Below, in pieces: positions 36,963-55,755 of a stretch of 64,000 bases of DNA. Position 1 is the first letter of the stretch. Each line of letters begins with the position of its first letter. The notes beneath the pieces were generated by a model. It was not told where the DNA came from, did not search any database, and saw nothing but the letters and a program-made list of their open reading frames with translations. The position numbers were made by a program, and so were the translations under genes. This DNA is from Helicobacteraceae bacterium (GTDB lineage Bacteria; Campylobacterota; Campylobacteria; Campylobacterales; SZUA-545), in assembly GCA_031268655.1 (NCBI GenBank), contig JAIRWX010000021.1:4303-68302 (forward strand), read 5' to 3'.

Positions 36963-37519
36963 GTTTGCACTCGTCGTTTAACCTGCCGCCAAAGGTGTGG
37001 CGCAGAACCCCAATCGGCAAATATCTAAGGCTGATTCCGCGCAAGAAACAGCTAAAAGGTACTTGGCTGCATAGAAAGCTGGGCGACAAGCTGCTAAGAA
37101 CCGAATATTGGGAGCCTAGTATAGAGTCGATCTCCAAAGGTTTTGCCATTGGTTCTTTCTGGGCGATGATTCCAATGCCCTTTCAAATGGTCCCAAGCGG
37201 AATATGCGCCGTCTTGTTTCGCGCAAACGTGCCGCTGGCGCTGCTTGGCGTATGGGTTACAAACCCGATAACGCACCCGTTTGTGATGGTTTTTCAGCTA
37301 TTCTTGGGAGAGTGGCTGCTAAACGCGCCAAGCTCGTTGAACGTTTTAGAAAATCAAGGATTTATAGCTCTTTTGCATCACGCGCCCGCGCCGTTTTTAA
37401 CCGGCGTGCTTGTATGCGCCGTAGTCTGGTCGACCGCGGGATTTTTCATATCGCGGCTATGTTACAAAATAGCGACCGCTCTGATCGCCAAATCCTACGA
37501 AAGGCGACGCGCCAGATGA
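36959..37519 (+). CDS. DUF2062-family membrane protein
   Basis: KGFAIGSFWAMIPMPFQMVPSGICAVLFRANVPLALLGVWVTNPITHP fits the DUF2062 pattern as I remember it. Confidence 0.6.
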   Translation: MSLHSSFNLPPKVWRRTPIGKYLRLIPRKKQLKGTWLHRKLGDKLLRTEYWEPSIESISKGFAIGSFWAMIPMPFQMVPSGICAVLFRANVPLALLGVWVTNPITHPFVMVFQLFLGEWLLNAPSSLNVLENQGFIALLHHAPAPFLTGVLVCAVVWSTAGFFISRLCYKIATALIAKSYERRRAR

Positions 37520-37728
37520 AAGCTTTTATGCTCGCGGCATGCGCGGCGGCGCTTTGCGGCTGCGTCGGCTTCAACGAATGCGGCGTCTCTTCAAGTTACT
37601 ACGGCGACTGCGTAGAGGGCTACGACGCGCAAGGCGCGTATTTCAAAAAATGCCCGCATAACAACATATACGATAGTTGCAAGCAAGACAAAGAGTTAGA
37701 TTTTGAGGACTGCCTGAATTGCAACTAG
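37516..37728 (+). CDS. Small Cys-rich lipoprotein (70 aa)
   Basis: An internal ATG overlaps the DUF2062 stop (ATGA). The product starts MKAFMLAACAAALCGC (signal plus lipobox) and the mature part has 7 further cysteines, ending in CLNCN. Confidence 0.5.
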   Translation: MKAFMLAACAAALCGCVGFNECGVSSSYYGDCVEGYDAQGAYFKKCPHNNIYDSCKQDKELDFEDCLNCN

Positions 37729-38577: not shown

Positions 38578-39054
38578 ATGGCGGAAGAGACGGCGGAAGA
38601 AGAACTTGGCGAGGAGAAGCGTTCGACTCGAACGGACGCGGGCAAAGAACGTTTAGAGCTTAAAGCCTACAATCTGATCAATCAGGAGTTATGCGGATAC
38701 GTGGAAGAGATTCAAGACGGATACGCGAAAGTCCGCTTGATCGCCTCGGACGATATGGTTGTGGACAAGCGCGGTCTGATTCATTCGGGCTTTATTTTCT
38801 GCGCGGCGAATTTTGCGGCGGCGGCGGCGATCAACAAGCCAAACGTGCTATTGGCGGCGGCGCGTTGCAATTTTCTCGCGCCGCTTAAGGTCGGGGACGA
38901 AGTGGTGTTTGAAGCCTCCTCGATGCAAAATGCGACCAGAAAGCGCGTCGTAACCGTCTCGGGGTTAATCGGCAAGATCAAGGTGTTCGACGGCGAGTTT
39001 TCCGCGGTGGTAACGGAAAAGCATGCCCTAAGTTTGAATATAATGGATCAGTAA
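38578..39054 (+). CDS. Hotdog-fold thioesterase (PaaI-like)
   Basis: 158 aa with a GLIHSGFIFCAANFAAAAA hotdog helix region and an acidic N-terminal extension. Confidence 0.6.
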   Translation: MAEETAEEELGEEKRSTRTDAGKERLELKAYNLINQELCGYVEEIQDGYAKVRLIASDDMVVDKRGLIHSGFIFCAANFAAAAAINKPNVLLAAARCNFLAPLKVGDEVVFEASSMQNATRKRVVTVSGLIGKIKVFDGEFSAVVTEKHALSLNIMDQ

Positions 39055-39120
39055 CGTTGGCTTGCCTCTTACGCGCAAAGCGCAAGGGGTTTTATGAAAC
39101 GCAAGGCTACAGAACTTGAC

Positions 39121-39169
39121 GCAAAATGCGGCTAGAAAGCGCGTCGTAATCCTTGCGGGCTTGATTGTC
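39121..39169 (+). pseudogene. Diverged partial duplicate of the thioesterase gene 3-prime region
   Basis: About 38 of 49 nt are identical to 38925-38973. The translations are QNAARKRVVILAGLIV versus QNATRKRVVTVSGLIG. Confidence 0.4.
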
Positions 39170-39317
39170 CCGCCTTGTAAACGCGACGCGACGTTAATAA
39201 GATTTATTCCGCGCCTGCGGCAATTTTGTCAAATACCTTCTAAAATTTCTCCCGTCCCCTTACAAATTATGCGGCGCGATCAAAGATTAAAATTTAGGGG
39301 ATTGCGTCGCCCGATAG

Positions 39318-39560
39318 CTAATTCGTTAAGCGGACTAGATTGATCGCGCCCGTTATATCGTCAAAGCTTTTTTTGCCGGCCGCCGCGATCTTCCTGTATT
39401 CGTTTTCCCAACGGACGGGCTGTCCCCTGTCTTGAAGTATCCTCAGCGCGGATACGGGCAGCTGATCGCCGTAATAGTAGCGGTAGTGCGTTCTCGCTTC
39501 CTCGCGGCTTGTCTCGCTCTCCGTTATCGCTTCCTGTAACGATTCCCATAAATCTATCAA
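39318..39560 (-). pseudogene. Portal-protein-like N-terminal fragment (80 aa)
   Basis: YRYYYGDQLPVSALRILQDRGQPVRWENEYRKI resembles the YYxGxQW...L..RGQP...N..I motif near the N-terminus of several phage portal families. The ORF stops after 80 aa and there is no continuation in any frame. Confidence 0.35.
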
Positions 39561-39561
39561 C

Positions 39562-42500
39562 TCAGTTCCTTTGACTCGATATAAACATTCTCGTAAAACT
39601 CGGAGCCAACGGCGGTCTTTCGCGCAAGCCGAATAGTTTAACGACGCCGACGCTTCCTATCGCTCCCATCGCTCCTCGCCTAGGGTTATAGCTTATGTTC
39701 CCGTCCTCGTCCGTTTCAAACCCGGTCATACTTCCCAATATCGCCCCGCCGATATGCGGACTAGAATAAAGCGTCGTTCCCTCTTTTACCGCCTTCTCTT
39801 GACTTCTCGCCGCGCCCGCTGTAAAATTCTTCTTCTGAACCCCAAGCGGAAGAGCTTTTATGGTATCGATCCGCTTCCCTTGTTCCGCAGGGGCTTGCGC
39901 ATCGCCGATTGTCTGCGCATAGGGGTTCTTTTTATTCCTCGCGTCTTGATACGCGGTCAACAGCCAAGCGTCCCTTTCGTTTCGCTCCAAAGCTATAATC
40001 GCCGTCGTTTTTGTATCGACCAGCGCGATCTTGCCGCCTTGGCTTCGCGTCGGATCAACCGCGCTATTCGCTATCGTTTCGGGCAGCTTTCTAAGAAACT
40101 CCGTCGTCTTTGCCATATCGCCCTTATATTCCGAGCGCCGCTTTTCGATAATATGCGCCAAGCCGTAACCATTCGCTCCCTCTTTTCCCCAAACAAGATC
40201 GATATAGCCCGTTTCGGGGCGATAAAACGCGCCGCTTACTTCGCCCTTTCCAGCCTTAAGCATAAAATCTATTGAAAAGCGTCCCAGCCGTAAACGTTTA
40301 GATTTAAGACGATTGGTTAATCTTTCGGCTAACTCCGGATCGCCGTTCTCCGCGATTATCTCTTTAATATGCGTTTCAGTATTCGCAACGTCGTCTTTAA
40401 GCTGTCCTATCGTCTCTTTATCGATATAGAGCGGATCGGCTTTTATCCTTCTTGCCATCTCCGCTCTATCGACGCTTCCCTCGCGTTGCATAAGAGAGTC
40501 AAGCATAATAACGCCGTCGTCGCGTATTACTTCGTAATGACCCCTAAATCTTTCGTCCTCGATTAGTTCGGGATTCTTCTTGAATATCTCGTCCGTCTGT
40601 TTCGCCGTCCGCTTAGAGGCTAAACGGCTCTCTATATCCGCTTTGGTTAAGCCGTTGAGCTTAACGTCGTAAAAGTTCGTTTTGTTGTAACGTTTGCTGG
40701 TATGATGCCATTCTTTCATATCTAACGTTAATTGTTTCAGCAAGGGCGTGGGAAGTTTTTCAAGATCGGCTATTTCAATATCGGTATCTTCCGCGTCTTT
40801 TAATACCTCTTTCGCCCTATCTAATATATCTTTCCGCGTCCATTTAGAAAGAGGTTTTTTACCTTCGCCGTAAGCGGCGAGCGCGTTATTACTCATAGAG
40901 TAGTCGGGGCTGTAACCCGCTTTGATAATATCCGCGCCTCGCTCTTGTAAGTTAGCCGCCTTGTTAAAGCGCGTATTTGCTCTTGACGTTTGCGCGCCGA
41001 TCGGCGCTCCCTCTTTGGATAAACGAAACAGCTTAGGCGCATATGATACGCCAATCGCTCCAGCCAGCCCTTTCGCGGGGTTATAACGCAAAGCGCCCTC
41101 GTCGTCCGTTTCAAATCCCAAGCCAGAGCCGACTATCGCCCTAGCGGTTAGAGGATTAACAAAGCCTTTTCTCGCTTCCAACTCCGCCTCGCGCCGTTTA
41201 ATTATCCGCTCGATAACGCGGGCGTTAGGATACGGAGAGGTATTGCCCTCGAATAGCTCCGCCGCTTCTTGCGCGATATTAACGATTTCGCCGTCGTCTC
41301 TGTAATGCATCTCTTTCAAAGCGCGGTTAATCGCCGCGCTATCGCCCTCTTTTATATGCTCGATTATCTTGTCGTAGGCGTTGGGAGCGCCGCGTTTATC
41401 CGCCAGCTTTTGTATTTGTTCCGTAAAAGGCAGGGCGGCTTTATATATCAGCGTCTGTTCGGCTATCATTCGATCGTTGAGAGAAATAGACCCCGACGCG
41501 ATCGCCTCTTTGAACCTCTTTTGATTATCCAATCCCGCGAGCCGTATCAGTTTAACGTCCGAATCAAACTGCGCCGCTTCTTGAGTTAGTTTCTCATTTT
41601 GCGACGGCTCGCCCGCCTTTGCCGCCCCGTCCTTTTCGCGCAAATCTCTCGCCACCGCCTCGTCTATCTCTTGACTTCTCGCTCCCTCTTGCGCTATAGT
41701 TTCATTTCGGGCGGTCTGCGAGAGAGCTTGGTCATCTCGCGGGGCAACGGCGTTAGTGTCGATCCTCTTAACGCCGCCGTCTGTTTTATCAAACGCCGTT
41801 AAAAGCCACGTTTTTTTATCGCCCTTAAAATTAAGCTGAACGACCGCCCTATACCTATCATTCTGCAACACGACTCTATTATCCGTTACGCTTGTTATAG
41901 GCAGTTCGTTGATGATCTCCAGCTTATCCAGCATTTCGGGGTGAAACCGCTCTAGTTTCGCTATGCCCCAGCCGTCGCTATGCCCCGTTCCCGCTTCGCC
42001 CCACACAAGATCGATCTCGCCTATACGCCCGTCGCGCAGCGCGGCGGGCGCTTCGCCCTCCCGCGTTTGCAGCAGATGCGCCACAGCTTCGTTGGGTCTG
42101 CCCTCGAAGCCGCGCCAGATAGTTCCAAACGCCCCTTTTTCAGCGTCGGTCGTCTCGGCGCGGGGCGCGTTCATTCCCCGCTCCGCGTTCGCCGCGTCGT
42201 CTATCGCCCTTACTTTATTTGCAAGCTCCGCCAGCGCGATACTATCCCGCTCGCCGTAAAACTCCAGCGCCGCGTCGATACGATCAAACGGCGCGATCTG
42301 CTCTCCGAATAGGCTGCCCTGCCTGCTCTCGTCCGCCGCCTCGATAATCCTCTCTATGCCGCGTCCAAAATCCTCTACGCCGCCGTCTTTTAATCCGTTC
42401 AGCCGACGAAGCGCGACTCCCAGAATATCAGCCGCGAATTCGTCGCGTCCAATGATATTACCTTCTATGTCTTTTCCGTTGTAAGAGTCGATTAGCTCGT

Positions 42501-42666
42501 TGTATTCGGCGATAATCTCGTTGACGTTTTTGCGGGCGTTAGCTCCAGCCGTATTCATTCTATCCAGAGCCGTCGGCAGTATCGGGGTTATATCTATGTC
42601 GGCGTTCTCCGTCCGCTCCGCCATCTTGCGCAGGTTGAACAATTTGTGCGCGTTGCGGTTGATCAT
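39562..42666 (-). CDS. Giant multidomain protein of the phage/ICE polyvalent-protein type, internally duplicated
   Basis: 1034-aa uninterrupted ORF. It carries two copies of an IDLVWG...G(W/Y)G(I/L)A...WLLTA(F/Y) module (aa 178-296 and 806-908). It carries two copies of GFETD(D/E)xG..YNP..G..GAIG.....KLF (aa 512-547 and 973-1012). A SMSNNALAAYGEGKKPLSKW segment is also present. Confidence 0.55.
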   Translation of the reverse strand: MINRNAHKLFNLRKMAERTENADIDITPILPTALDRMNTAGANARKNVNEIIAEYNELIDSYNGKDIEGNIIGRDEFAADILGVALRRLNGLKDGGVEDFGRGIERIIEAADESRQGSLFGEQIAPFDRIDAALEFYGERDSIALAELANKVRAIDDAANAERGMNAPRAETTDAEKGAFGTIWRGFEGRPNEAVAHLLQTREGEAPAALRDGRIGEIDLVWGEAGTGHSDGWGIAKLERFHPEMLDKLEIINELPITSVTDNRVVLQNDRYRAVVQLNFKGDKKTWLLTAFDKTDGGVKRIDTNAVAPRDDQALSQTARNETIAQEGARSQEIDEAVARDLREKDGAAKAGEPSQNEKLTQEAAQFDSDVKLIRLAGLDNQKRFKEAIASGSISLNDRMIAEQTLIYKAALPFTEQIQKLADKRGAPNAYDKIIEHIKEGDSAAINRALKEMHYRDDGEIVNIAQEAAELFEGNTSPYPNARVIERIIKRREAELEARKGFVNPLTARAIVGSGLGFETDDEGALRYNPAKGLAGAIGVSYAPKLFRLSKEGAPIGAQTSRANTRFNKAANLQERGADIIKAGYSPDYSMSNNALAAYGEGKKPLSKWTRKDILDRAKEVLKDAEDTDIEIADLEKLPTPLLKQLTLDMKEWHHTSKRYNKTNFYDVKLNGLTKADIESRLASKRTAKQTDEIFKKNPELIEDERFRGHYEVIRDDGVIMLDSLMQREGSVDRAEMARRIKADPLYIDKETIGQLKDDVANTETHIKEIIAENGDPELAERLTNRLKSKRLRLGRFSIDFMLKAGKGEVSGAFYRPETGYIDLVWGKEGANGYGLAHIIEKRRSEYKGDMAKTTEFLRKLPETIANSAVDPTRSQGGKIALVDTKTTAIIALERNERDAWLLTAYQDARNKKNPYAQTIGDAQAPAEQGKRIDTIKALPLGVQKKNFTAGAARSQEKAVKEGTTLYSSPHIGGAILGSMTGFETDEDGNISYNPRRGAMGAIGSVGVVKLFGLRERPPLAPSFTRMFISSQRN

Positions 42667-42780
42667 CAGTTTGAAGTCCTGATTTAACGGGTTGTCGCGG
42701 ACAAAGCGATCTAGGGCGGGGGCGACTTTACGATCGCAAAGCCTAGTCGTAAATCAGGTTTGATAAAATCGGCGCGACCG

Positions 42781-44457
42781 TTATAGTTCCGTTTTCAAAA
42801 CCGCGCCGCAACTCGCATTGCTTACAAGCAGGCTGTAACGCTTAAGCCAGCTTGATTCGATAGGCTTTTTTAGCGGAACAAATCGCGCTCGACGCTTTGT
42901 GATCTCCTCGTCGCTCAAGTTTGCTTTGATAATGTTTTGATTGACGTTGATATAGATTTCGTCGCCGTCTTGCAACAGGGCGATCAGTCCGCCCTCGGCG
43001 GCTTCGGGCGAAATATGTCCGATTGCGGCGCCGCGAGTAGCGCCAGAAAATCTGCCGTCGGTAATCAACGCCACTTTGTCGCCAAGTCCCATTCCCATAA
43101 TAAGGCTTGTCGGCGACAGCATCTCTTGCATTCCAGGTCCGCCTTTTGGACCCTCGTAGCGCACAACCACGACGTTGCCCGCTCCTACCCTGCCCCGCGA
43201 AATTCCGTCGCTCGCCTCCGCTTCGGAGTTGAAACAGATCGCCGCGCCCGTAAATTCGCGCATTTTTGGATCGATCGCCGCCGTTTTAGCCACCGCGCCC
43301 TGTTCGGCGAGATTGCCAAATAAAATCGCTAGTCCGCCGACGGGCGAATAGGGATTATCCAGCGCGCGAATCACGTTCGGATCTTTCACAACTTTGCTCT
43401 TAATTCTTTCGCCCAGCGTCCCGCCTTCGATCGTAAGCGCGTCTAAGCGCAAGAAACCCAGATTGGATATTTCGTTCATAATCGCGCTAACTCCGCCTGC
43501 GTTGTGAACGTCCTCCATATGCACGCTGCTTAACGACGGCGCAATCTTGGCGATATGCGCCGTCTGTTTGCCGATCTCGTTGATCTTGCTAAGATCAAAA
43601 TCTACGCCCGCCTCGCGCGCGATCGCCAGCATATGCAAAACTGTGTTTGTGCTGCCGCCCATCGCCATATCTACGACGAATGCGTTATGAACGGCTTTTT
43701 CGGTTACAATCTCGCGGATTTTCGGCGCGCCCTCTTTTGCCATCCGCGCGATTCGCCGCGCCGCCTCGCGTAGCAGCGCCTCGCGTTCTTTCGTGAGCGC
43801 CAAAATCGTGCCGTTGCCGTCAAGGGCTACGCCCATCGCCTCGCACAAAGTATTCATGCTATTGGCGGTGAACATTCCGCTACAGCTGCCCCCGCTCGGA
43901 CAAGCGCGACACTCTATGTCTTTTAGCTCCTCGTCGCCGATCAACCCAAGCGTTTTTTTGCCCACCGCCTCAAATACGGAGTTGAGATCGATCGCCGTCC
44001 CGTCTTTAAGTCTGCCCGCTTTCATCGGACCGCCCGAAATAAAAACCGTCGGAACATTTACGCGCAACGCGCCCATAAGCATTCCGGGAACAATCTTGTC
44101 GCAGTTTGGAATGCAAAGAAGAGCGTCGAATTGGTGCGCGTTCATCATCGTCTCGACCGAGTCGGCGATCAGTTCGCGGCTTGGCAGCGAGTAGCGCATT
44201 CCGTCGTGAGCCATAGCGATGCCGTCGTCAACGCCGATCGTGTTAAACTCGAACGCGACGCAGCCAGCCTTTTCAATCTCTTCTCGCGCGATCTTAGAGT
44301 ACTCGCGCAGGAAAAAATGACCCGGAATAATATCCACCACGCTGTTTGCTATGCCGATAAACGGCTTGTCAAAATCCTCGTCCTTCAGTCCCGTCGCCCG
44401 CAAAAGCGCGCGATGCGGCGCTCTCTCGTAGCCTTTTTTGATAATATCGCTTCGCAT
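42781..44457 (-). CDS. ilvD: Dihydroxy-acid dehydratase
   Basis: IlvD/Edd signatures ([20 protein letters not shown]-type region as [14 protein letters not shown]). The start is taken at [11 protein letters not shown]. Confidence 0.95.
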
Positions 44458-44545
44458 AGAACAACCTCGTTTTGATTTACGCGGCAAATTATAGCCTTGC
44501 CTTAGTAACGGCGCGTTATGCGAAGTTGTATTTTTAATGTTGCTT

Positions 44546-44605: not shown

Positions 44606-44680
44606 GCGGGAATAGCTCAGGGGTAGAGCACAACCTTGCCAAGGTTGGGGTCGCGAGTTCGAATCTCGTTTCCCGCTCCA
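44606..44680 (+). tRNA. tRNA-Gly (GCC)
   Basis: Cloverleaf readable by eye: acceptor gcgggaa/ttcccgc, anticodon loop ttGCCaa, T-loop ggttcgaatc-like, encoded CCA. Confidence 0.9.
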
Positions 44681-44805
44681 ACGTAAACCGCGAAAGCGGG
44701 TAGCTTTGATTGCATTTGCGGCGTTGTTCCCAAGCTATTTGAGCGCGCCGACTAACCTATCCGCGCCGCGAGTAACTTAAGAATTAAAGCCTAGCGGACA
44801 AAAGC

Positions 44806-44893
44806 GCCCGAGTGGTGAAACGGTAGACACACAGGACTTAAAATCCTGAGGACGAATGCGTCCGTGCCGGTTCAAGTCCGGCCTCGGGCACCA
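44806..44893 (+). tRNA. tRNA-Leu (UAA)
   Basis: Acceptor gcccgag/ctcgggc, anticodon loop ctTAAaa, long variable arm, encoded CCA. Confidence 0.9.
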
Positions 44894-44938
44894 GACCTTT
44901 TACAATTGGAGGTTGTTCGTAACGCGCTAGACGTTTGC

Positions 44939-45012
44939 GGCGGCGTGGCCAAGCGGTAAGGCAAGAGCCTGCAAAGCTCTGACCCCCGGTTCGAATCCGG
45001 GCGCCGCCTCCA
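44939..45012 (+). tRNA. tRNA-Cys (GCA)
   Basis: Acceptor ggcggcg/cgccgcc, anticodon loop ctGCAaa, T-arm ccggttcgaatccgg, encoded CCA. Confidence 0.9.
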
Positions 45013-45104
45013 AATATTGTTTAACGCTCAAGTCCGCAGAACTTCGTTCTCGCCCCAATCGATTCGCCGTTAGCGACTTGGCGACAACGTTTGTTTAAGC
45101 GATT

Positions 45105-45194
45105 GGACAGATGGCCGAGCGGTTGAAGGCGCACGCCTGGAACGCGTGTATAGGATAAAACCTATCGAGGGTTCGAATCCCTCTCTGTCCGCCA
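45105..45194 (+). tRNA. tRNA-Ser (GGA)
   Basis: Acceptor ggacaga/tctgtcc, anticodon loop ctGGAac, long variable arm, encoded CCA. Confidence 0.85.
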
Positions 45195-45297: not shown

Positions 45298-46293
45298 CTA
45301 AACTTGCGACGAAAACGGCAGAGTTTGAACGAAGTTTGTCATAAAATCCCAATCGGGCTGGCGGTTTTTGGTGGGAAGTTTTAGAAACGATACTTTCATA
45401 CGGTTGCTGTCCCATTTGCGACCATAATTAAAACGATATTTTTCTTTACGAATAATGACTGCCAAAAACAGAGCAATACTTGGTACAAGCTTGAATTTTG
45501 GATAAAGCACATTTATATCATCAGAAGCATAAAATGGTTTTGGTTGGTAAAATGCTTCGCCAACAGAGCCGTTATAACTAACTGTGATTGTGTTCCCTTC
45601 GTGAATTGCGTCTTGTCCAATGTGATCGCGATAGCCGTTATTTTTATCTATGGCGGCAACGAATGGCGTGTCGCCTTGTTCAAAATCGGCTTCTACAAGA
45701 CGCTTGCCTTTTTTGACTTCAAAAAGCTCATCAAATCGGTATGTTGCCCACTCGGCAGTTTTTAATTCTGGCGTTGGTAAGTTTTGAGCTGGTTTTGTGA
45801 TTTTCGCTATCGTCTCAATATTTACTACTTGCTTCCATTCGTTTGGCATTAACGCTGGTACGAGAACCTTTTTTATACGGTCGCCTTTTGGCTTGCGATT
45901 GTAATTAAAACGGTATCTGTTTTTAGTAATGCAAAATGCGTAATAAAGTTTTTCTTCAATGGACATTTTTTGTTTTGGAAGTAAAACATAAATATCGCTA
46001 TTTGGCACAAATACCTCAGTGGAAACATAAGAGAAAGTGTGACTGCCTTGTCCATTAGTAGAAACATAAATTGTATCTGCTGGAAAAATATATTTGTCGT
46101 CAATAAAACGCTTATCAACAAACGCATCTATTGAAGTGTTTTGTTTGTGTGAAGGACGAATAAAATGTATATGGTTTTCTGATATTTTGGAATGTTCGCG
46201 TTCAACAGAATTAGACGCAATGCCCGACTTGAAGTTAAACAATTTTTGCAATTCTATTAGTTGCGTATTACTCATAATTGCCATGCGTCTCAT
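45298..46293 (-). CDS. Restriction-modification specificity subunit (two half-TRDs, BcgIB-like size)
   Basis: 331 aa with an internal duplication: KNRYRFNYNRKPKGDRIKKVLVP versus KEKYRFNYGRKWDSNRMKVSFLKLP. It overlaps the upstream methylase-nuclease gene. The real start may be MSNTQL at 46275. Confidence 0.75.
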   Translation of the reverse strand: MRRMAIMSNTQLIELQKLFNFKSGIASNSVEREHSKISENHIHFIRPSHKQNTSIDAFVDKRFIDDKYIFPADTIYVSTNGQGSHTFSYVSTEVFVPNSDIYVLLPKQKMSIEEKLYYAFCITKNRYRFNYNRKPKGDRIKKVLVPALMPNEWKQVVNIETIAKITKPAQNLPTPELKTAEWATYRFDELFEVKKGKRLVEADFEQGDTPFVAAIDKNNGYRDHIGQDAIHEGNTITVSYNGSVGEAFYQPKPFYASDDINVLYPKFKLVPSIALFLAVIIRKEKYRFNYGRKWDSNRMKVSFLKLPTKNRQPDWDFMTNFVQTLPFSSQV

Positions 46294-48133
46294 CTAAACC
46301 GCTAACCTTGAAAACAACAAATTTTTTTACTGCTTTAGCAAAATCATCGATCGTCAAATTGCTATAATCGGTTTCCATATAGGCTTCAGCGCACCATTCG
46401 TTATTGGCGGTTACATTTTTTAACACCGACAAGCCGGCGATATCTTTGTGATTGCGATAATTGGTAATCCATTGGCGTTTGATTTCGTTTTCAAATTTTC
46501 CGAATAGGTCAATACGTCCTTTGTTTTTACGCTTCACAAAGCCGTCGTTTTTATAGTAGCCAAAATAGACTTCTTTGTCGGCGGGGTGCGGACGCTTGGC
46601 GGTGAAAACTATAATACAACTAACGACGCCGACTTTGGAATTGAAAAACAACTCGTCGGGCATTGAAAAGACGGCTTCCAGCGTGTGATTTTTCAAAATC
46701 TTTTTCTTATATTCCCAAACTTTGCCGCTCGTTGCTAGGGCTTCTTGCATTGGCACAATGGCAACGCACTTTCCGCCTTGCGTTAAGCATTCCAAGTTAG
46801 CGAGAATAAACTCATATTCGTCCGTATCAGTTTTCTTATCTGCTTTGTATGGCGGATTAAGCAAACCGACATTAGGGTTTTGTTTTTTTACGGCAGATTT
46901 TATTTCATCATCGAAACAATCGCCCAAATAAATGTTGGTCTTACCATCTTGGTGTATGAACATATTTGAACAAGCAAGCGCAAAAATTTTATCGGAGTAT
47001 TCCACGCCGATAAGTTGATTTTGCTTGACGTTTTTAATTTTTTCGCTATCGCCTTTGGCGTCTTTAATCATTAAATTCATCGCCGATACCAAAAAACCGC
47101 CCGTGCCGGTGCAGTTGTCATAAACAATACTATCTTTATTAACTTCGGCGACTTCCGCCATAAACTCGGTGATATGCGGCGGAGTTAAAACAATTCCCAA
47201 ACCCTTATCGGAATTTGCATAGCGCAAAAACTCAATATAAAGCTGCCCCAAAACGTCAAAATATTCATGCGTTTTTATAAAATCTTTAATATTATCGTTA
47301 ATGTCGGCGATCACTTCTTTAAGCGCATCCTTTTTATTTGAAAGCGTAGAGTTTGTTTTTAAAAACGAAAAGCGCGCGTCTAAAACTTCAAGTTTTCTAT
47401 CGCCGACTTTACCATTTTCAAATTCGTTATGAACAGTTTTGACAAGATATTCTGCAAGTTGTTTTGCTTCTTTATAACTCGCGTAGGTTTTTACAAATCC
47501 TTCGTTTTCCAAAGCAATTAAAACGCAACTGATTAACAGCGCGCGCTCGTCTTCGGCAATTTTCCAGCTATGTAATTTTTCGTTAAGCGTTTTGGAAAAT
47601 ACCATTAAAGTTTGATAATCTTGACGGAACTTTTCGGGGCTTTTGATATAACCGTCGTATAAATCGCTTAGCGACAGAAGTTTGTCGGCGAAAATTGGCG
47701 TGGCGGTTTGTTCGCCTTTTAATTGGAGAAAATAGGAAACCTTGAGGGTTTGCGGGGTTTCGCCGCTTACGGCAATAGAGAGTACATCGTAATTTTTTGA
47801 GAGAAATGAACTATAAAGTTTTACGCCGTCCGCCGCGTAATCGTCGTATTGATCGCCAGTTTTGCTTTCATGATATTTAGTATCGGCTTTGCACTCGACG
47901 GCGACGATAAAATCAGAGTTTTTGCGAGATTGAATAATAAAATCGGGGCGACCCTTGCCGGAACCGTCTTTTTTGGAAGCCCCCGCAAGCGATTTTTTGA
48001 TTTTCTCGTTTTGGCTAGTTTGGCGTTCATAAATATAATCATGCAAATTAGCGCCGAGAGCTATGGCATCAGCGTGGTTTTTGACAAAATCTTCAAAGAT
48101 CGTTTCAGTATTAGCTTCATTCTTTGTAGACAT
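46268..48133 (-). CDS. Fused PD-(D/E)xK endonuclease / gamma-class N6-adenine methyltransferase (BcgIA-like RM subunit)
   Basis: The N-terminus has GRPDFII...VAVECKAD (a PD...ExK motif). SAM motif I is VYDNCTGTGGFLV and the catalytic motif is LLNPPYK. At 621 aa it has no TRD of its own. Confidence 0.8.
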   Translation of the reverse strand: MSTKNEANTETIFEDFVKNHADAIALGANLHDYIYERQTSQNEKIKKSLAGASKKDGSGKGRPDFIIQSRKNSDFIVAVECKADTKYHESKTGDQYDDYAADGVKLYSSFLSKNYDVLSIAVSGETPQTLKVSYFLQLKGEQTATPIFADKLLSLSDLYDGYIKSPEKFRQDYQTLMVFSKTLNEKLHSWKIAEDERALLISCVLIALENEGFVKTYASYKEAKQLAEYLVKTVHNEFENGKVGDRKLEVLDARFSFLKTNSTLSNKKDALKEVIADINDNIKDFIKTHEYFDVLGQLYIEFLRYANSDKGLGIVLTPPHITEFMAEVAEVNKDSIVYDNCTGTGGFLVSAMNLMIKDAKGDSEKIKNVKQNQLIGVEYSDKIFALACSNMFIHQDGKTNIYLGDCFDDEIKSAVKKQNPNVGLLNPPYKADKKTDTDEYEFILANLECLTQGGKCVAIVPMQEALATSGKVWEYKKKILKNHTLEAVFSMPDELFFNSKVGVVSCIIVFTAKRPHPADKEVYFGYYKNDGFVKRKNKGRIDLFGKFENEIKRQWITNYRNHKDIAGLSVLKNVTANNEWCAEAYMETDYSNLTIDDFAKAVKKFVVFKVSGLDETHGNYE

Positions 48134-48399: not shown

Positions 48400-48488
48400 C
48401 GGGCAGGTGGCAGAGCGGTTGAACGCATCGGTCTTGAAAACCGACGAGGGCAAAACCTCCGTGGGTTCGAATCCCACCCTGCCCGCCA
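48400..48488 (+). tRNA. tRNA-Ser (UGA)
   Basis: Acceptor gggcagg/cctgccc, anticodon loop ctTGAaa, long variable arm, T-arm gtgggttcgaatcccac, encoded CCA. Confidence 0.85.
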
Positions 48489-54121: not shown

Positions 54122-54970
54122 TTACGCAAATAACGTCGTCTCGCCGACCTCGCGTCGCATGTTTATAGCGCCGATCGGATAGTTCGCTATAAACAATTCT
54201 CTGCCGTTTTGATCGGAGGCTTCGGTTATATTGCGCATGCCGTAGATTTGCGTCCAAGATCTGATATTAGCGAAAGAAAAAAGCTCTCGTATGTATCTGC
54301 AATCGTCATAGGTGATCAGCCATTTATACGAGCAGTTTCTCATAATGTCGGCAAAACGTATATGATCAAACGATTTATGTAACTTTCCGTTCTTGCCGTA
54401 AAGCGAAGATTTTGCCGTAGAATAATATGGCGGGTCAAGAAATATAAAAACGTTTTCGCCGCTCTTTTTGACAATCTCTTCATAGTCCTTATTTGCAATC
54501 GCCGCATTGTCTAAAACGCCGTTTAAGTTGCGTAGCCTTTCGATGCTGCTATATGTAAATCTGCCCTTGAAAGCCGCCTCGCTGAACCCGCCGCTTAAGC
54601 TCGTGCCCGAAAAGGTAACGCGGTTATAAATAAAAAACGCCGCCGCCCGCTCTAAATCATTAAAGCCCTCTGTGTTTTCGTTTAGAAACCGATACAGCTC
54701 TTTGCCTACGCTGTATTCGTTTTTCCATTCAAGTATCTTTTCTATTAAACAATCGCCGTTTGCCTGTACCGCTTTCCAAAATAGATAAAGCTCCGCATAG
54801 AGATCGTTTATCCAGTATTTTTTATTAGGATACAGCTGTTTAAGATATATAAATACCGATCCTCCGCCCAAAAAAGGCTCTCTATACTCGTCAAATGGAG
54901 GAATCAGGTTTGCGATTGTCTTAATCGCCCTGCTTTTGCCGCCAGGATAACGTAGCGGGCTTTTGATCAT
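54122..54970 (-). CDS. Dam-like (alpha-class, D12) N6-adenine DNA methyltransferase
   Basis: LRYPGGKSR, motif I EPFLGGGSVF and motif IV FLDPPYY occur in the alpha order. Target specificity cannot be read from the sequence. Confidence 0.85.
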   Translation of the reverse strand: MIKSPLRYPGGKSRAIKTIANLIPPFDEYREPFLGGGSVFIYLKQLYPNKKYWINDLYAELYLFWKAVQANGDCLIEKILEWKNEYSVGKELYRFLNENTEGFNDLERAAAFFIYNRVTFSGTSLSGGFSEAAFKGRFTYSSIERLRNLNGVLDNAAIANKDYEEIVKKSGENVFIFLDPPYYSTAKSSLYGKNGKLHKSFDHIRFADIMRNCSYKWLITYDDCRYIRELFSFANIRSWTQIYGMRNITEASDQNGRELFIANYPIGAINMRREVGETTLFA

Positions 54971-55755
54971 GACGCGCCTTTTATTTCAACTATAAATCCG
55001 TTTTCTCGCGCTTCGCAAAAAAGCGTTTCGATCAGTTGCTCCGTATTGGGAGACATTTTGTTATCGGCGGCGAACGTTCGCGCCGATTCCGGACTGTCCG
55101 ACGATACGCCGCCTTTTATCTTTGTCGACATAAGTCTCAGAACCGCTATATGCTTTATCTTTTTGCCGTTTAGAGTTGTTTCGCGCAAATTGGCGTACAA
55201 AATCATTTTTAACAGTCCGTCTTTTATATCTCCTTTGCTTGGCAAAACGGCGTTCTTGGCATGTTTGCTTTCGATCAGATAAAGTAGTTCGCTATCGACG
55301 CGCGTTTCATCAACGGTAAAATAATAAAGTCCGCCTAGGTAATTACCGATTGTTATTTTCGATTTTGTATTGGTCGTCAAAAACTCTTTTGGCTGCGTCG
55401 CGGCAAGCTCTCTTGCCTGCGCCTCTTTTGCTTTAAGCCGCGAGAAACTCATAAATTCTGCAATGTCTTTGTCAATTTTTGCTTTGAAACCTTCCATTCC
55501 GCTTGCGCTATGTAAAACGATCTTGGTTTTTTGCTCTATTAGCGCGTAACTGTCCTTTGCTTTACCGATTAAACATGGCAGACTGCTTTTTAACTCGTTT
55601 AAGTTCCAATGCAACGCAGAACTATGGCATTTCTTGATTTCTTTGATTTTCGATACTATGTATTCATTGTCAAACTTTTGATCCGTTATTTTTGTACCAT
55701 TTGCCTTCGCGTCGGAATAATAGGCGAGTATAACGAAAACGTCAAGCAAAGACAT
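54967..55755 (-). CDS. Putative restriction endonuclease, C-terminal part or subunit (PD-(D/E)xK-like)
   Basis: 262 aa with VDETRVDSELLYLIESK (D...ExK) at nt 55264-55311. An ATGA overlap joins it to the methylase gene. Confidence 0.5.
   Translation of the reverse strand: MSLLDVFVILAYYSDAKANGTKITDQKFDNEYIVSKIKEIKKCHSSALHWNLNELKSSLPCLIGKAKDSYALIEQKTKIVLHSASGMEGFKAKIDKDIAEFMSFSRLKAKEAQARELAATQPKEFLTTNTKSKITIGNYLGGLYYFTVDETRVDSELLYLIESKHAKNAVLPSKGDIKDGLLKMILYANLRETTLNGKKIKHIAVLRLMSTKIKGGVSSDSPESARTFAADNKMSPNTEQLIETLFCEARENGFIVEIKGAS

Follow-up and report, generated by a model that had tools for sequence, protein, structure and literature searches.

A polyvalent-type gene and a portal fragment beside ilvD

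The window analysed here, a stretch of 64,000 nucleotides (nt) from contig JAIRWX010000021.1 in the metagenome-assembled genome of a Helicobacteraceae bacterium, contains, between ilvD and a gene for a hotdog thioesterase, two adjoining minus-strand open reading frames (ORFs), one for a protein of 1034 amino acids (aa) annotated as hypothetical (LBI57_03010) and one for a protein of 80 aa (Table 1). Both had been picked out in an earlier reading made from the sequence alone, without database searches (the sequence-only reading), as a possible polyvalent gene and a truncated portal gene of a phage. That reading described the large ORF as uninterrupted over 3.1 kb, and the ORF list bears this out, the frame being open throughout its 1034 codons. 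It also placed the ORF co-directionally between its two neighbours, which is right for ilvD, upstream on the same strand, but wrong for the thioesterase gene, which lies on the plus strand and converges with both ORFs. The 80-aa ORF starts, as described, one nucleotide past the large one, nt 39561 being all that separates the stop codon of the first from the start codon of the second.

Profile searches against polyvalent and portal families, in Pfam and PHROGs, returned PBECR1 in the 1034-aa protein and P22_portal in the 80-aa protein. PBECR1 (Pfam PF18809) occurs twice in the large protein (expectation value (E) 9.9e-20, 71.4 bits against a cut-off of 27.6), and homologues of the protein are found inside giant virion-associated phage proteins. 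Domains of the PBECR type are a feature of phage polyvalent proteins and have a predicted endoribonuclease (endoRNase) activity (Iyer, Burroughs, Anand, de Souza and Aravind, 2017, PMC5512222). The combination of conflict domains that characterizes polyvalent proteins is present, in the form of two PBECR1 copies (27% identical in a self-comparison) and a domain here called WHHTS, and the setting that characterizes the phage type, among virion, portal or terminase genes, is represented by the portal start 1 nt downstream, here a stub only.

The suspected absence of a housekeeping motif likewise held: no NCBIfam model matched the large protein, and it carries the two PBECR1 domains instead. Of 5.8 billion proteins none but itself matches it at full length, which makes it a singleton, and the other matches in that set cover the PBECR1 domain only (11-16% of the query). 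Its PHROGs matches are confined to families that derive from very large phage proteins and have no known function, and a sequence comparison with solved structures gave no meaningful match. A housekeeping family for the ORF was rejected on the lack of an NCBIfam match together with the singleton status. The sequence-only reading had named two outcomes that would speak against it, a conserved housekeeping family present at this locus in all relatives and a small ORF without portal similarity; we found instead a large ORF that is not housekeeping and is unmatched at full length elsewhere, and a small ORF that is portal-similar.

Residues 7-58 of the 80-aa product align with positions 3-54 of the 594-position P22_portal profile (PF16510; E 4.2e-7, 29.3 bits against a cut-off of 26.1), and the product matches PHROG 156, 'portal protein' (E 1.8e-7). 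Residues 2-60 are 68% identical (E 1e-26) to the first 64 residues of a portal protein on the metagenomic contig L027 (JGI 3300042652, Ga0466708_033938; found through the metagenomic protein P0007), itself a P22_portal member over its 205 available residues (E 1.3e-32). No match was returned when the stub was searched by tblastn in a set of 50,697 phage records. The homology stops at '…ENEYRKIAA' (nt 39381), and the non-homologous tail that follows is, judging by these alignments, sequence from past a deletion breakpoint. A full-length portal body has about 550-700 aa and forms a dodecameric ring; here the homology ends at codon 60, and the gene is a fragment. The statement that the portal-like ORF has no continuation in any frame also stands: three-frame translation of 39055-39420 showed no portal continuation, and tblastn searches with two portals, run over all 64 kb of the window, found no portal piece past nt 39381. 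A frameshifted but still present portal was rejected on these two results. Six nucleotides 5' of the portal TTG, within the end of the polyvalent gene, lies an AAGGA, and the polyvalent stop, the AAGGA and the TTG are arranged as a native coupled junction.

A Pfam scan of the neighbourhood covered 22 ORFs, from 26.7 to 55.8 kb of the window, all of which are chromosomal or belong to restriction-modification systems. Integrase, terminase, capsid and repressor families were without a match among the ORFs scanned, in keeping with the earlier statement that no such gene is present. None of the hallmarks of an intact or inducible prophage (integrase, terminase, capsid, tail genes, att repeats) was found over this range, and a repeat search found no direct repeats flanking the phage fragment.

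Modules and relatives of the 1034-aa protein

From its N-terminus, the protein consists of an N-terminal module, a first PBECR1 copy, a helical region, a Gly-rich motif, the WHHTS domain, a second helical region, the second PBECR1 copy and a second Gly-rich motif. Residues 1-31 have no homologue. Residues 32-357 match (31.7% identity, E 5e-21, tblastn against phages) an internal part of gp21 of Agrobacterium phage Atu_ph08, a 4877-aa 'DarB-like antirestriction' protein encoded near a portal and a virion protein.

With Bbp10, a protein of 2052 aa from the structural cassette of Bordetella phage BPP-1, the first PBECR1 copy shares 50% identity; the copy belongs to a subfamily with the signature GEIDLVWGEAGTGxSDGxGLAKxxxxHPE, whose members include Bbp10, polyvalent proteins of Campylobacter upsaliensis and several metagenomic proteins. 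The second copy is 37% identical to both PBECR1 copies of a giant protein (3628 aa) from a Helicobacter pullorum prophage, and both copies match that protein as well as the DdrB-ParB polyvalent protein encoded by H. pylori phage Pt11061_1. A recent internal tandem duplication was rejected, the two copies being only 27% identical. The active-site configuration described for PBECR1 consists of a His within the N-terminal helix, along with a C-terminal Thr (Iyer et al., 2017, PMC5512222). Copy 2 has both residues, in GYGLAHIIE and WLLTAY; copy 1 and its subfamily (GLAKxxx[FYW]HPE) have a Lys at the canonical helix-His position and a conserved His five residues on, with the Thr in WLLT kept. An AlphaFold2 (AF2) model of copy 1, with a predicted local distance difference test score (pLDDT) of 82.7, has as its top PDB matches the YoeB/ParE and RelE toxins; these would agree with the predicted barnase/EndoU/colicin/RelE-like fold but are non-significant (E 0.12-0.4, target-normalised template modelling score 0.37-0.45).

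Between the PBECR1 copies lies the WHHTS domain, which reads YSMSNNAxxAYxxGxKPLSKWT...EWHHTSxxYNxTxFY in the 1034-aa protein and for which Pfam, PHROGs, NCBIfam and PADLOC hold no model. An exhaustive HMMER search with residues 340-800 gave 913 representative proteins at E<=1e-3, nearly all of them matching residues 583-690 only. Most are stand-alone proteins of 130-250 aa that start with the domain, and their alignment leaves GY..SMSNNA..AY..G..PLSKW … WHHTS..YN.T.FY invariant. Some members are fused to ART-PolyVal, LPD3 or SAM-lyase domains, and the family is therefore linked to the network of polyvalent domains. The one genomic context of a stand-alone member that we examined consists of large phage-like contigs on which it lies beside DnaE, ligase and RadC genes. 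In an AF2 model (pLDDT 74) the WHHTS…FY residues are placed on a beta-hairpin that follows a helical bundle. Against the PDB this model gave no significant fold match, only weak winged-helix-like ones (E>=0.22), and its sole match in BFVD is an uncharacterised viral homologue. As a by-product that may be of more general use, the analysis yields a large family of phage domains that lacks annotation and joins the polyvalent network.

A second reusable by-product is the Gly-rich motif, with the pattern G..GFETD(D/E).G…YNP..G..G.IG at both of its sites in the 1034-aa protein. Further occurrences are in the giant protein of the H. pullorum prophage, in a pair of C. upsaliensis polyvalent proteins and in P0007; the sites located are at residue 3391 of the L002 giant protein and at residues 1230 of P0004, 1553 of P0005 and 18 of P0007. 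Under the broader consensus G..G(F/V)E.D(E/D).G…(N/D)P..(G/F)..G..G it brackets modules in polyvalent proteins of Campylobacterota, where it could serve for processing or form a membrane-interacting hairpin.

The modules differ in G+C content (GC), at 0.55-0.57 in the N-terminal region and copy 1 and 0.44-0.455 in WHHTS and the helical region after it. The GC mosaic that results was described in the sequence-only reading as running from about 35% to about 65%; it is real and was slightly overstated, the lowest values being 37-43% and not 35%. In 100-nt windows GC ranges from 37% (at 40762) to 70% (at 42012) and in 300-nt windows from 42 to 65%, the 1st-99th percentile of the 64-kb window being 37-63%. 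Such a pattern, arising because the modules differ, fits the domain shuffling already described for the polyvalent class, in which mosaic proteins with PBECR domains are known from prophages of Helicobacter (Iyer et al., 2017, PMC5512222). Taken as a whole, the gene has a GC of 0.519 and a codon bias B of 0.248, both within the range of host genes, and its GC at third codon positions (GC3) is the lowest among the long genes of the window. A restriction-modification island 3 kb off is clearly foreign, with B at 0.45-0.59.

Among described systems, the polyvalent proteins of the jhp1044 group from Helicobacter and Campylobacter phages and prophages (PMC5512222) resemble the window protein in having multiple PBECR1 domains in one large protein, GC-mosaic modules, the Gly-rich motif, a place just upstream of a P22-type portal and a Helicobacteraceae host. 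They are longer (1600-3600 aa) and, in contrast to the window protein, which carries WHHTS instead, contain the DdrB-ParB, MPTase, PBECR2-4, RelA/SpoT and LPD3 domains, none of which Pfam finds in the 1034 residues. Outside PBECR1 and the Gly-rich motif the window protein shows no detectable similarity to the H. pullorum and H. pylori phage proteins. In the H. pullorum prophage the giant gene is followed by two small genes and then by the P22-type portal. Bbp10 and gp21 of Atu_ph08 hold the best phage matches to PBECR1 copy 1 and to residues 32-357, respectively, and are likewise encoded among structural genes; they differ in carrying many other domains and in belonging to intact phages of unrelated hosts.

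The closest relative of the module is on L027, which preserves the order Gly-rich motif, WHHTS, PBECR1 and then portal. The C-terminal 483 aa of its polyvalent protein are 34% identical to residues 502-986 of the 1034-aa protein (E 1e-52). It differs from the window in a portal that runs past residue 64, in a single PBECR1 of the copy-1 subfamily and in two minus-strand genes between the polyvalent C-terminus and the P22-like portal. These two genes (L027 1549-2477, minus), which are morons, encode a 130-aa protein of unknown function and a protein with a SocA_Panacea domain, of antitoxin type; they are not in the window, where the flanking genes abut. Two scans of viral contigs and two of metagenomes for an intact relative of the phage were empty.

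Origin and present state of the locus

We estimate at roughly 0.8 the probability that the two ORFs are a ~3.3-kb remnant of the virion-gene region of a tailed Helicobacteraceae phage with a P22-type portal, stranded in the chromosome of an uncultured host after deletion of the rest. A survivor of a decayed prophage had been one of the possibilities offered by the sequence-only reading, and it is upheld by the polyvalent-then-portal order, the portal cut at codon 60 and the lack of any other phage gene among the ORFs scanned nearby. Polyvalent genes left in host genomes by decayed invasive elements are already known as a 'third context' of the class (Iyer et al., 2017, PMC5512222), and the locus is a further example of it, not a new system. 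It shares with the described cases a polyvalent architecture set amid chromosomal genes, where no functional mobile element surrounds it, and differs from them in that its phage origin is proven directly by the portal stub and that host use is not indicated. To call it the best candidate in the window for an undescribed system, as had been done, was too much, since stranded polyvalent genes and mosaic PBECR proteins of Helicobacter had been described before (PMC5512222).

What would have survived of the parent phage is one complete mosaic polyvalent gene and the first 60 portal codons, with their native junction and ribosome-binding site. In that phage the polyvalent protein would have been packaged close to the portal inside the head and have left it together with the DNA on ejection, as we infer from the literature on the family and from the structural-cassette position of the homologues. 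Its PBECR1 domains, predicted metal-independent endoRNases of the barnase/EndoU/colicin/RelE fold, may have cleaved RNAs of the host or of the phage at an early stage of infection, in counter-defence or in host takeover. At the present locus there would be no virion to deliver the protein, and the gene is now most likely inert or incidentally transcribed cargo rather than a working system. Promoter-like and terminator-like sites were sought on the minus strand of the spacer between ilvD and the gene and none was seen, so that any expression would come most simply from ilvD read-through.

On the thioesterase side, the search for repeats found a 51-nt pseudo-copy of part of the thioesterase gene, confirmed within the window by blastn-short (E 4e-6). 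It is a direct repeat, 60 nt past the thioesterase stop and between that stop and the portal breakpoint, and is probably a rearrangement or integration scar. A simple att-site model for it was not adopted, since the two copies do not flank the phage fragment but both lie to one side of it.

Several observations weigh against a stranded phage remnant. Residues 1-180 had no homologue in a word-indexed search, and the N-terminus may not be native. The 1034-codon frame is open, both PBECR1 copies keep the residues typical of the family and codon usage is like that of the host, all of which would fit a gene kept by selection too. No att repeats or integrase mark an integration, and the geometry of the sole scar, the 51-nt pseudo-copy, does not fit a simple integration model. 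The junctions rest on the assembly of a metagenome-derived genome. Finally, no empty site was found in relatives: the closest host relative found (CmoB 75% identical) keeps the order GGDEF-DUF2062-lipoprotein-cmoB-thioesterase, and its contig, the only one from a close genome, has no ilvD and, with room for a single short, unrelated ORF after the thioesterase gene, stops 458 nt past that gene.

Domestication, with retention and expression of the polyvalent protein by the host as a chromosomal ribonuclease (RNase) weapon or defence against incoming elements, for instance through co-transcription with ilvD, seems to us unlikely. Such a role has been proposed for 'third context' genes (Iyer et al., 2017, PMC5512222), and it would account for 1034 intact codons, for the family-typical residues retained in both PBECR1 copies and for GC and codon usage close to those of the host; the gene also has an AGGA 10 nt 5' of its ATG, and no terminator was seen between it and ilvD. 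The 5.8 billion proteins include no orthologue, however, and there is thus no sign of retention over time. The useless portal stub and its ribosome-binding site are still attached, pointing to a deletion that is recent and has not been polished, and the low GC3 and the GC mosaic by module indicate a gene that is not fully ameliorated. Nor does the gene have a promoter-like site upstream on its own strand. Neither an antitoxin domain nor a small cognate antitoxin gene adjoins it, the sole adjacent small ORF being the portal stub, and an immunity partner is lacking as well. Neither the 1034-aa nor the 80-aa ORF matched a defence model of PADLOC-DB 2.0 at E<=0.01. The more specific proposal that this is a host-kept, ilvD-co-transcribed RNase gene in which WHHTS acts with PBECR1 as a new phage-host conflict module we consider improbable.

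An assembly artefact, with a phage fragment misjoined to chromosomal sequence when the metagenome was assembled or binned, is a very improbable explanation. The genome does come from metagenome assembly, no relatives of the fragment are known at this locus and both of its ends are abrupt, but two independent chimeric joins would be needed within a contig of 72.5 kb. The GC and codon usage of the fragment are, moreover, like those of the flanking genes and unlike those of the restriction-modification island, and the diverged thioesterase pseudo-copy on its left flank is a mark of genomic rearrangement and not of assembly. Derivation from a conjugative or integrative element, which PBECR domains reported in some conjugative elements (Iyer et al., 2017, PMC5512222) and polyvalent proteins delivered by type IV secretion systems might suggest, can be almost wholly discounted, since a P22-type portal gene is directly attached, the closest homologues are all in phages, prophages or phage-like contigs, and no type IV secretion system, relaxase or ArdC-N domain was found among the ORFs scanned by Pfam.

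If the locus is indeed a stranded phage remnant, it offers a clean, datable case of a phage virion effector left in a chromosome, with the native junction kept and the breakpoint placed within a few bases. Remnants of this kind may be raw material for the recruitment of phage weapons by hosts, a recruitment that is not indicated here.

Surrounding genes

The thioesterase side of the locus carries cmoB-like, DUF2062 and GGDEF/EAL genes, and the other side, beyond ilvD, four clustered tRNA genes together with the low-GC restriction-modification island.

Table 1. Positions of the features discussed, in coordinates of the 64-kb window.
Feature	Position	Strand	Basis or remark
Hotdog thioesterase gene	38578..39054	plus	Convergent with the 1034-aa ORF and the stub
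Thioesterase pseudo-copy, 51 nt	39115..39165	plus	80% identity to thioesterase codons 38919-38969; repeat search
Portal-stub ORF, 80 aa	39318..39560	minus	TTG start (ORF list)
Non-homologous 20-codon stub tail	39318..39380	minus	Comparison with L027 and H. pullorum portals
First 60 codons of P22-like portal gene	39381..39560	minus	Pfam, PHROG, L027 comparison
Polyvalent-type gene, 1034 aa	39562..42666	minus	ATG start, frame uninterrupted (ORF list)
Gly-rich motif 2, residues 978-1004: GSMTGFETDEDGNISYNPRRGAMGAIG	39655..39735	minus	Near C-terminus
PBECR1 copy 2, residues 796-912	39931..40281	minus	Pfam best stretch 813-911
WHHTS domain, residues 583-690	40597..40920	minus	Without annotation; low-GC patch (0.44)
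Gly-rich motif 1, residues 513-539: GSGLGFETDDEGALRYNPAKGLAGAIG	41050..41130	minus	Regex and BLAST
PBECR1 copy 1, residues about 176-300	41767..42141	minus	Pfam
N-terminal region, residues 1-175	42142..42666	minus	GC 0.56
Spacer, 114 nt	42667..42780	minus	ilvD stop to polyvalent ATG; in-frame TGA at 42754-42756
ilvD	42781..44487	minus	Pfam ILVD_EDD_N, E 4e-127; upstream of the 1034-aa ORF
Type IIG island	45298-48133		GC 0.37-0.40, foreign codon usage; between tRNA-Ser(gga) 45105-45194 and tRNA-Ser(tga) 48401-48488
Dam-like D12 N6-adenine methyltransferase	54122-54970		Overlaps the Type II endonuclease gene
Type II restriction endonuclease, 262 aa	54967-55755		PADLOC E 8e-44

The tRNA genes (Gly-Leu-Cys-Ser, 44606-45194) adjoin the island, whose products are a Type IIG restriction-methylase fusion (PADLOC E 1e-169) and a specificity subunit. 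The methyltransferase and endonuclease genes at 54122-55755 form a second restriction-modification system of the window. Between cmoB and the DUF2062 gene, the C-terminal part (37519-37728) of the ORF 37204..37728 corresponds to a small Cys-rich putative lipoprotein (…LCGCVGFNECG…CPHNNIY…CLNCN), which is conserved in this position in the closest relative genome as well (L005 6121-6345).

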